Assembly: GCA_964016885.1 (NCBI GenBank)
Contig: CAXHJY010001687.1
Location: forward strand, 135,281-199,280
DNA: 64,000 bases
Direction of reading: 5' to 3'
DNA from: Eledone cirrhosa
Lineage: Eukaryota
Shown here: positions 33,425 through 36,610 of the stretch, one piece after another
Layout: every line of letters begins with the position of its first letter
Numbering within the stretch: the stretch's first letter is position 1
Position numbers and translations under genes: made by a program
The notes under the pieces: generated by a model
Databases searched by the model: none
What the model was told of the DNA's origin: nothing
What the model saw: only the letters and a program-made list of their open reading frames with translations

Positions 33425-33493
33425 TATATATATATATATATATATATTATGAAAGTAAAACAAAGAAGCCTTCAATACATCAAAAGTCTTTAT

Positions 33494-33535
33494 TAGCCAA
33501 CAATGTTTCGTCCTATTAAGGACTCATCAGGGCAA
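33494..33535 (-). ncRNA. minimal hammerhead ribozyme
   Basis: GCC-CTGATGA-GTCC..GGAC-GAAA-CATTG-TT-GGC. Confidence 0.85.
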
Positions 33536-35315
33536 TTAAAACAACAAGAAGTATTATCGGCCAATACAAGCCGGAAACTCCGAAGAATATGGAGTGTACA
33601 TACACTAAAGTATTGCAAGATTATGGGTAAAAATATATAATAAAAATCACTAAGGAGGTGTATAACATTTAGAACCATATTACAAGCAAAAAAACCCTAG
33701 AGCTAAACAAAGGTGGTTATATAGAGCAGGAATTATATATAATACAATATAATATAATATAATATACTTTTACCAATATTAAAATTACAATAAAAATCAA
33801 AAGGTACAATATACATATGTATATATGTACGCACACGTACGCACATATACACATACATCAATACACATATCCATCTTCAACAGCACAAATTAAACCTTAT
33901 TAAGAGTTTAAATATAAATAAGCATGATAGGAATAAAAATAATAATAATAATAATAATAATAATAATAATAATAATAATAATAATAATAATAATAATAAT
34001 AATAATAATAATAATAATAATACATATACCCAATATACATGAGGCAAAAATATTATAATATTATAAGTAGCACATATAATATATAATAAACTATACAATT
34101 ATATACTATATAATATAATAGAATAGATAATCTCCGGTTAATTTACACAAACAATATAGATGTCACAATAATACTATAATAATAATATAATAACATATAT
34201 AATATACAATATATAATGTATAATGGCATTCAAGTTAACAAATCAATTCATATAGAGTTACAGAGTAGGTGAGGAAAAATAAATTGTACAATACCCAAAA
34301 TTATGATGGTACAAAAATATAAACATCTTCCATGATATATAAAGTTTAACATATCACAATGTTACATATAATCAGCGGTAAGTAATAAGGATCGATAGTA
34401 CAGTAACAAATACAATATAAAATAATTAACATAATATAATATATAATTACTTATAATTACAAGGTTGGTAAACAGACATATGTGGATGAGTGAGTAAGGG
34501 CCAGACAGTAAATAGAATGCACAGTAGTATTACAAATAAAATAAAATAAATAAATAGAATCAACCGGAAATTAAAAAACAAAAACAAAAGTATACATTTA
34601 GGTCTCACATGCCGTTAAGTAAAAACTTAGGAAATAACCCCGGTAAATGACTCGAAAACCCTATTTGATAAATTAATATTAAAAATATTTAAAATATCCA
34701 ATAAGGCAATACAATATTAGCTATGGTTTAAGTAATCAAAGTTTATAAACGTTAATATTTCATTACAAATATTTACAAAAAGGAATGAAATTTTCTACTA
34801 TCATATACATAACGATATCTAAAAAACTGACTTAAGCAGAATTATGGTAGGCTAATAGGGACAGAAATAAAGAAATATATGGAGGATACAAAGGAGCATA
34901 AAATCATAGTCAATATACTATATTAAATAATAGAAAGGAGCGTAAAAGAGGGGGGGATTAAATATAATCATAATCTATTTGGAGGGGTTGACAATAATTT
35001 TATGTGCGCATAGGGGGAGGGGGAAGTGGGGGGGGGGGGGGGGTTATCCAAAGAAGAATCCAAATAAAAATAAAAATAAAATAAAATGAAATAAAATGAA
35101 ATAAAATAAAATAATGTAAAATATATAATCAGATATATACTCATAAGGTGTTAATAGTGAAAATTTAATGCGTAAGAAGATAGATATGGCATAGTAGCCA
35201 AAAGATTATGAGAGCTAGAATAAAGAGTTGTCAAAAACCAATGATAATAATGATGATAATAATGGTGGTAAACAAAAAGAACCTAAACTAAAAAATAAGT
35301 AATGGAATATATCAG

Positions 35316-36269
35316 CTAATGGATACAATTTATACTACTAGAACCTTTAGGTTTATAATAAAAGTAAGAATTAGAAATAGCGTGGGGGCAAGAAGAGAAT
35401 ATCTCAGACTTTCTATTAAGTAAGGATTCGCTAGAGAAAATTATAGAGTGTGTCTCGAGGATACAGAGATTACAAAATTTAGTATGTGTAGAAAGGTTAT
35501 TAGAGCGTGCTACTAAACGCCAGTTAAGGCTATATGGTATATTAGCCCCCTTAAGATCCCAGATATAATGTGCTAAAGAAGTAGAATTCTTAAACTTAAC
35601 ATGTTTTAAATTAGAGATATGAGAATTAAACCTAGTCTTAAAAGTGTTAGATGTAGAGCCTATATAAGTTCTATTAGAGGAATTAGTTATAACTACGCAA
35701 GCATAGACAATGTTCATAGAGAGGCAGTTACCGTTTAAAGGGCAGTTAGCACTCACTCTACAGTTACACTTCCGGGTGCTATTGGTTGGCTGAAGTGGTG
35801 ATGCATTACACGTAGGATTGCTATTAGATAAGGTCTGTTCTGGTGGTAAGGCATTTCCAGATCTGTTCAGACTAGTAGTATGTAGAGAGGAGAATCCATC
35901 CCTAATTTTCCTATTGTTAGTGCTAGCTAAATGAGAACTAATATTAGGGGTGGTAGAGAATGAAAGTTTAATAACATTTTTATTAAAAATACTATGGTAT
36001 TTATGAGAAGGGGGGAAATTTTTCTCTAAGATAGAAAAGAAAGACCTAGGGATATTAGTTAATACTTCCTGATTATATGGCGGGTTAAAATAAGTATTTA
36101 GTCTCCTTCTATTTTTATTCTTACCGACTCTACCATTATCTAATATCCCACCATCAAGACTAGGGTTACTACAAAGATTAGTTAAAACCGCATTATTAGA
36201 ATCAGCCAAAATTCCATTAAGTCTATTACTGTTTCTACCTCCAGTAGATCTGCTGCTGTCTGGAATCAC
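35316..36269 (-). CDS. PLE linker plus GIY-YIG endonuclease (partial)
   Basis: FNPPY, FSTTPN, Cys motif, YIG. Confidence 0.82.
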   Translation of the reverse strand: MIPDSSRSTGGRNSNRLNGILADSNNAVLTNLCSNPSLDGGILDNGRVGKNKNRRRLNTYFNPPYNQEVLTNIPRSFFSILEKNFPPSHKYHSIFNKNVIKLSFSTTPNISSHLASTNNRKIRDGFSSLHTTSLNRSGNALPPEQTLSNSNPTCNASPLQPTNSTRKCNCRVSANCPLNGNCLSMNIVYACVVITNSSNRTYIGSTSNTFKTRFNSHISNLKHVKFKNSTSLAHYIWDLKGANIPYSLNWRLVARSNNLSTHTKFCNLCILETHSIIFSSESLLNRKSEIFSSCPHAISNSYFYYKPKGSSSINCIH

Positions 36270-36610
36270 ATCAAAAGGATTAGGGCCAATAATAGGATCA
36301 GTAGAAGCAACATTATTAGAATTACTTTCATAATTCTTCGGCTCTGTTTAATTACATTGAGCTATACCTTTTACTGTCATTTCTATAATACGAAGAGGGT
36401 GTTTAACTCCAACACGCTCCAGTATTTTAACCCTTAACCCTTATATATATATATATATATATATATATATATATATATATATATATATATATATATATAT
36501 ATATATATAGATATTATATATATATATATATATATATATATATATATATATATATATATATATATATATATATATGTATATATATATATAGATAGATAGA
36601 TATTATATTA

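Follow-up and report, generated by a model that had tools for sequence, protein, structure and literature searches.

The window, the whole 64-kb stretch of Eledone cirrhosa DNA analysed here, carries at 33446-36443 an insertion that can be classified from its motifs as a 5′-truncated Penelope-like retroelement (PLE) of the Hydra clade, 3.0 kb in length. Its features, in coordinates of the window, are as follows:

33423-33445, no strand: left (TA)n target; the element's last 2 nt (33446-33447) fit the repeat as well
33446-36324, minus: long arm, the 5′-truncated Hydra-clade PLE body, with a 3′ end that lacks the tail; 33446 is the putative internal reverse transcription (RT) start
33496-33533, minus: type I hammerhead ribozyme motif (CUGAUGA and GAAA cores, stems I-III)
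33545-35315, minus: AT-rich spacer between ORF stop and hammerhead (1771 nt, 24.7% GC), containing an (AAT)n run
35316-36321, minus: open ORF remnant with N/S-rich linker, CxCx5C, GIY-YIG endonuclease, CxxC and CxH, without RT
36322-36324, no strand: 3-nt microhomology at the inversion joint, fitting both body and tail arm
36322-36334, plus: 13-nt duplication of the tail-less 3′ end (exact word match)
36335-36443, plus: 109-nt tail, which follows straight on from the 33446 end in other copies of the family
36340-36363, plus: predicted hairpin with a bulge, placed 6 nt beyond the internal end on its 3′ side
36428-36441, plus: 7-nt unit present twice at the tail end (sequence reading)
36444-36510, no strand: right (TA)n target (sequence reading)

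The order along the insert is target, body inverted from its 3′ end, tail in sense orientation and target again. About 2.87 kb of the long arm is missing from the tailed arm, and the 109 nt of the tail are missing from the long arm. The insertion is a dead copy of ordinary overall layout, and with (TA)n on both flanks a target-site duplication is unreadable there. Both element ends placed by the earlier note are borne out. The minus-strand end is TTACTTTCATAAT (minus 33446-33458), which abuts (TA)n, and the same word restarts on the plus strand at 36322-36334, from where the sequence continues for another 109 nt to 36443 and then enters (TA)n. These are the single occurrences of TTACTTTCATAAT on the two strands of the window. 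Thirteen nucleotides that match in inverted orientation within 3 kb would carry little weight as a free match (BLAST E 0.32); TTACTTTCATAAT, however, is the element's exact terminal 13-mer, expected from base composition 2.6e-4 times in 3 kb. The 13-nt overlap noted previously thus stands as a word present twice, and its length is refined: positions 36322-36324 also fit the body, so the duplication measures 10-13 nt.

The Hydra clade is marked by a C-terminal GIY-YIG endonuclease, a CxCx5C linker motif, lack of a CCHH motif, CxxC and CxH motifs, a hammerhead and a (TA)n target (PMC8557442, section 11), and the supplement of that paper includes the Octopus family Hydra-1_Obim. The minus-strand ORF 35316-36321 contains a GIY-YIG domain (Pfam PF01541, E 1.9e-4, 22.1 bits, just below the 22.6 cut-off) and across 250 aa is 35% identical to the C-terminal end of P0001 (E 3e-42), an RT-bearing protein named from Argonauta hians that is also the best match of the neighbouring RT-EN ORF 11321-12880. 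It shares with the clade the CxCx5C linker (CNCRVSANC, in invariant alignment columns) and the lack of CCHH, a single cysteine lying between the GIY and YIG halves; CNLC (CxxC) precedes the conserved E and CPH (CxH) comes after the conserved N. Also shared are the (TA)n target and a predicted canonical hammerhead (33496-33533, minus), whose core and stems follow the format of the Hydra PLE rows in the PMC8557442 supplement. At the Rfam gathering score the 64-kb window gives no match, and the 33496-33533 motif falls below that score. RT is absent from this copy through 5′ truncation, and the RWK and DKT motifs by which the RT of the clade is recognised are present in three of the five aligned homologues. 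Members of the clade are described as mostly under 3 kb, a general rather than diagnostic trait (PMC8557442); in contrast, this copy reaches 3.0 kb without RT, owing to the 1771-nt spacer behind the ORF and the N/S-rich linker. Long AT-rich spacers between ORF and hammerhead are seen at 33545-35315 and 370-960, in related Hydra-type families, whereas the described members are compact.

Contiguity of the tail in other copies of the family

Four sequencing runs were compared with 35120-36455. Part of 35120-36443 is present in six of the ten runs listed, which come from two studies, and none of the runs listed that contain it is an RNA run; the run that covers it best may be the one from which the assembly was made. 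In run X5 a 212-nt contig matches 36322-36455 with three differing letters and a 7-nt gap, and the 30 nt just before 36322 in this contig are identical (30/30) to window positions 33459-33488 on the minus strand. Two X4 contigs display the same join of tail and body in a variant form (14 of 17 letters, by eye). Thus, in one X5 and two X4 contigs 36322-36443 is contiguous with the 33446 end, which bears out the proposal of the earlier note that the missing tail was placed, inverted, at the far end of the insert. Given this contiguity, 36322-36443 is the 3′ continuation of the element itself and includes its own 109-nt tail. The likeness of the tail to 1071-1158, pointed out before, is real but distant, as established by separate local alignments. 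The stretch 940-1160 represents a different, related family in which the part with the hammerhead matches 33446-33560 (minus) and what comes next matches 36339-36376 (plus, the hairpin), uninterrupted and in the same order.

At the joint itself, three X1 contigs track the body to 36324 and then diverge, with a reading frame, read by hand, that stays open; this fixes the 3-nt microhomology at 36322-36324. Among the matches listed (24 of 773 pieces and 24 of 173 loose ends) no contig or read bridges 36321/36322, so the exact joint rests on the assembly. The loose ends listed at 36322-36324 are uninverted continuations, and the inverted joint is not seen as a family-wide form. A metagenome scan with the 20-nt junction word gave no matches. 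A further inverted joint is found in one X4 contig of the same family, where antisense body (28 of 30 letters matching 33548-33577, plus) is joined to the tail from 36383. Here 48 nt are missing instead of overlapping, with a 2-nt microhomology determined by hand, in a single contig with only 38 loose letters.

Upstream letters that differ from the window before 36333 (67 X8 reads) and before 36326 (two X1 contigs) look by eye like antisense ORF pieces. They are not counted, since in each case 82 of 150 shuffles scored as high as the best translation, and they may reflect further inverted joints or other subfamilies. The X8 loose end before 36333 has no match in the 64-kb window, and neither has one X5 loose end behind 35988. 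At the tail end, 235 of 507 X8 reads lack one of the two copies of the 7-nt unit at 36428-36441, whose doubling may reflect realignment at the start of reverse transcription.

Head-to-head loci in the window and the tail hairpin

Thirteen head-to-head repeats, nearly all lying between microsatellite runs, were hand-picked from the window by self-comparison and sequence reading. PLE identity is clear from ORF remnants for 33446-36443, 19881-21267 and 23004-25783, and likely where hammerhead-like cores are present; for 36611-37616 and 45540-46166 it is uncertain. In all 13 exactly one arm is tailed: one arm stops at a fixed inner site and the other continues 39-162 nt further. If each arm's start were at even odds this would be expected about once in 8000, for loci that were picked by eye. 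The overlap of the two arms ranges from 13 nt at 33446-36443, ~11 nt at 46227-46450 and 43 nt at 55229-55592 to between 121 and 554 nt or more in the remaining ten, and by our own reading the tail-less arm exceeds the shared part in 8 of the 13. Arm identity within a locus is 97.2-100% (five loci), and 83.7-94.4% between loci of the same family. Near-perfect palindromes are formed at 1490-2476, 22012-22533 and 45540-46166; the one at 1490-2476 is a palindrome of a ~460-nt hammerhead-bearing non-coding unit, with a 68-nt tail that repeats the unit's own start. The family of 36611-37616 also has a solo tail at 9611-9757, between TA runs and with ~30 nt more of that family. The minimal-overlap layout recurs in another family:

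46227-46450, no strand: second minimal-overlap insertion, inverted tail of ~90 nt, tail-less arm of 120 nt

With the contiguous form at 53560-53810 as reference, its ~11-nt overlap is accompanied by a 4-nt microhomology and a short AT-rich extra stretch, and a long-overlap form of the same family lies 6 kb away at 52583-53802.

An automatic terminal screen of the window recovered 7 of the 13 hand-picked loci and missed six, 33446-36443 among them, because internal TA runs split the loci or the exact-word rule failed. As a control incomplete to that extent, the screen contained no PLE with both arms tailed; its symmetric hits are an RTE palindrome, two inner pieces of split loci and a mariner. 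At 50009-51320 lies a DNA transposon, probably mariner-type by its motifs, that has terminal inverted repeats and whose transposase is broken. At 13146-13293 two RTE LINE 3′ ends stand head to head, each ending in (GAT)n, like the LINE product of two primers. On the minus strand at 3795-5777 a Hydra-type PLE has its truncated 5′ end directly joined to an inverted 64-nt RTE 3′ end, possibly a join between the cDNAs of two different elements. At 12890-13045 the RT-EN PLE has a truncated 5′ end whose last 15-20 nt recur twice more, with TA in between, as though through repeated template jumps. A 591-nt unit forms five tandem copies, 95-98% alike, at 26920-29960.

The predicted hairpin of the tail (36340-36363) has a two-base bulge, and its pattern recurs in the tails of several PLE-like families of the window:

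1071-1094, 55529-55564, 25885-25910, 22061-22141 and 32007-32065: bulged hairpin pattern with constant lower stem and varying upper stems and loops

In four families with both end types present it lies 5-10 nt past the inner end. A search with the pattern, built from the window's own copies and therefore partly circular, gave 8 matches against a shuffle mean of 0.51, one of them within a Neptune-type ORF. Among eight folded tails the hairpin falls outside the minimum-energy structure in two, and three fold no better than shuffles; when seven hairpins were aligned with MAFFT, their variable loops came out misaligned. A 7-letter hairpin word has 17 matches in the supplement of PMC8557442, none assignable there to a Hydra tail. 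As a lead from these predicted folds, the bulged hairpin is a candidate RT-binding or start-setting element that would fix the internal start.

Origin of the insertion

Direct observation covers the anatomy of the copy, the joining of its tail to the 33446 end elsewhere in the family, the microhomology and the fact that the layout recurs. Each arm holds sequence that the other lacks, so neither arm is a fold-back copy of the other and, as the two arms read, fold-back of one cDNA would be unable to build this copy. Two priming events, with two primers, very probably made it. That both took place on one RNA, as twin priming from the two cut (TA)n ends, is the account we favour with moderate confidence. 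Synthesis from one DNA end would begin at the internal site 33446 and cover ~2.9 kb, and that from the other would begin at the tail end 36443 and cover the 109-nt tail. The tail-primed cDNA would run ~10-13 nt past the internal site and stop, and the two cDNA ends would then join via the 3-nt microhomology, followed by fill-in. The earlier note had called the junction twin-priming-like, and its geometry does match L1 twin priming with a short internal duplication; twin priming itself is the proposed mechanism. From this geometry, together with a PLE protein that has two starts, both-strand extension and a predicted dimer, we infer two priming events, while the single RNA, the order of events and the role of the hairpin in the internal start are likewise our reading of the locus.

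Twin priming is supported by the 3 nt of microhomology where the arms meet, which count for little on their own in AT-rich DNA, by the second family with its ~11-nt overlap and 4-nt microhomology (46227-46450), by the X4 contig, whose 48-nt gap corresponds to the deletion class, and by the single tailed arm in each of the 13 hand-picked loci. At 33446-36443 an overlap of 13 nt offers too few letters for a same-RNA test, and the arm-identity data come from five other loci. There, arms 97-100% alike within against 84-94% between loci point to one source per insertion; high identity within a locus could alternatively arise by later gene conversion or from one active donor. Against twin priming on one RNA, ten of the 13 overlaps are at least 121 nt, far above typical L1 duplications, and overlaps of 121 to ~550 nt or more could arise only if strands were displaced over a long distance or if the template was a tandem transcript or included a second RNA. 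The three near-perfect palindromes fit fold-back equally well.

The overlap lengths, a continuum from ~11 to more than 550 nt, are in keeping with a variant with two primers and two RNAs. In it, each target end is primed by its own RNP or by a different repeat of a tandem transcript, one using the internal site and one the tail end; microhomology joins the truncated cDNAs, and a short overlap reflects early truncation. Long overlaps are easier with two templates, and tandem PLE transcripts and a predicted protein dimer have been reported (PMC11167929). Short tail-bearing pieces are common, as in the solo tail at 9611-9757, and in X1 the depth of the tail is ~10 times that of the body (79,306-88,409 against 1,726-10,011), although depth is no copy number. 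By itself, however, a second RNA does not explain why one arm is tailed and the other tail-less in 13 of 13 loci. Also against it are the greater likeness of arms within than between loci and three joints, from two families, that lie less than 50 nt from the internal start, and we consider this variant unlikely.

Self-priming or fold-back on an antisense template, to which head-to-head PLE copies have been attributed, was proposed for rotifer PLEs from palindromes at inverted joints (PMC3846280), and the tail has been ascribed to endonuclease resolution (PMC8557442), which here would have removed the tail from one arm; the three near-perfect palindromic loci of the window agree with such a process. 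At 33446-36443, by contrast, the arms share 13 nt only and the joint is not palindromic, and in 8 of 13 loci the tail-less arm extends beyond what the two arms share. An already inverted donor might instead have been copied whole; the joint is not seen family-wide and the loose ends listed at 36322-36324 show uninverted continuations. Either form of this explanation appears highly improbable. Scarcely more plausible is a later DNA rearrangement or an assembly chimera, with the 2.9-kb body inverted or a solo tail attached, even though no bridging read is found among those listed and the window has many (TA)n runs and palindromes, with tails in abundance. A chance break would have to hit within 13 nt of the site where single copies end too, the tail belongs to the same subfamily as the 33446 end (30/30 upstream letters, three differing in the tail), and the layout recurs at 46227-46450 and in the X4 contig.

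Twin priming on one RNA may further be the programmed way in which PLEs attach their second end, one RNP priming two fixed sites on one RNA, an extension that we advance tentatively. The fixed sites would be the tail end and the internal site 5-10 nt upstream of the conserved bulged hairpin, the overlap of the arms would be set only by the distance over which the tail-primed RT displaces the other cDNA, and Hydra-clade elements would use a tail of ~100 nt. If true, the long-unexplained inverted pLTR and the one-sided tail would be one phenomenon.

Comparison with known systems

How tandem and inverted PLE ends arise is among the tasks that PMC8557442 sets for the field. Copies whose arms hardly overlap separate the models, as two primers can make them and fold-back cannot, and they yield countable predictions for any long-read assembly. 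Among the papers searched none applies twin priming to PLEs; older papers on PLE structure lie outside that search and the idea is possibly in print. The described PLE layout, which the earlier note does not mention, comprises an inverted 5′-truncated copy with a tail of 30-40 bp on one end (PMC3846280; PMC8557442). The insertion at 33446-36443 shares with it the head-to-head arms, the tail on one end, the hammerhead-bearing pLTR and the microsatellite target. In contrast, its tail measures 109 nt (39-162 nt across the 13 loci), and its inverted copy consists of the tail plus 10-13 nt, without a real inverted pLTR or a palindrome at the joint. It stands at the minimal-overlap extreme of a known insertion layout in a known clade. 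The Hydra consensus Penelope-13_HM has an inverted 5′ copy with the hammerhead 101-102 nt from both ends (PMC8557442 supplement); this equal spacing leaves no tail asymmetry in the consensus and speaks against a strict one-tail rule. Across 24 Hydra rows of the same supplement the distance from hammerhead to end is 87-130 nt in 12, 152-210 nt in 11 and 425 nt in one, with one of the 25 families with rows left out for its position at the 5′ end. These distances would fit tails of ~100 nt across the clade, for which the available text of PMC8557442 gives no tail length.

L1 twin priming leaves microhomology at the inversion joint (PMC2912911), and L1 inverted insertions carry internal duplications in 17% (median 22 bp) and deletions in 66% (median 14.5 bp), a short duplication arising where the 3′-end cDNA overruns the internal primer and a deletion where it stops short (bioRxiv 10.1101/2024.08.27.596794). 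Similarly, at 33446-36443 the 3′ piece of the RNA stands on one side and an upstream piece, inverted, on the other, with a short duplication or deletion and microhomology at such joints. The two systems differ in the internal primer, which in L1 anneals via chance complementarity, whereas the internal site here is fixed and common to ordinary single copies. They also differ in proportion, since the 3′-end product is usually the longer one in L1 and here measures ~120 nt against 2.9 kb. Unlike L1, the element is without poly(A) and its enzyme is that of a GIY-YIG PLE. The purified PLE protein PAc of Anolis Poseidon, a predicted dimer, cleaves and extends both target strands and in vitro initiates internally at two sites flanking the tail, with little pairing to the target (PMC11167929). 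PAc belongs to another clade and its tail is 30-40 bp, and the main text of that paper does not link the two sites to inverted insertions. The two RT start sites bounding the tail in PAc have putative counterparts at 33446-36443, and minimal-overlap copies tie the two start sites and both-strand extension seen in vitro to a structure in the genome.
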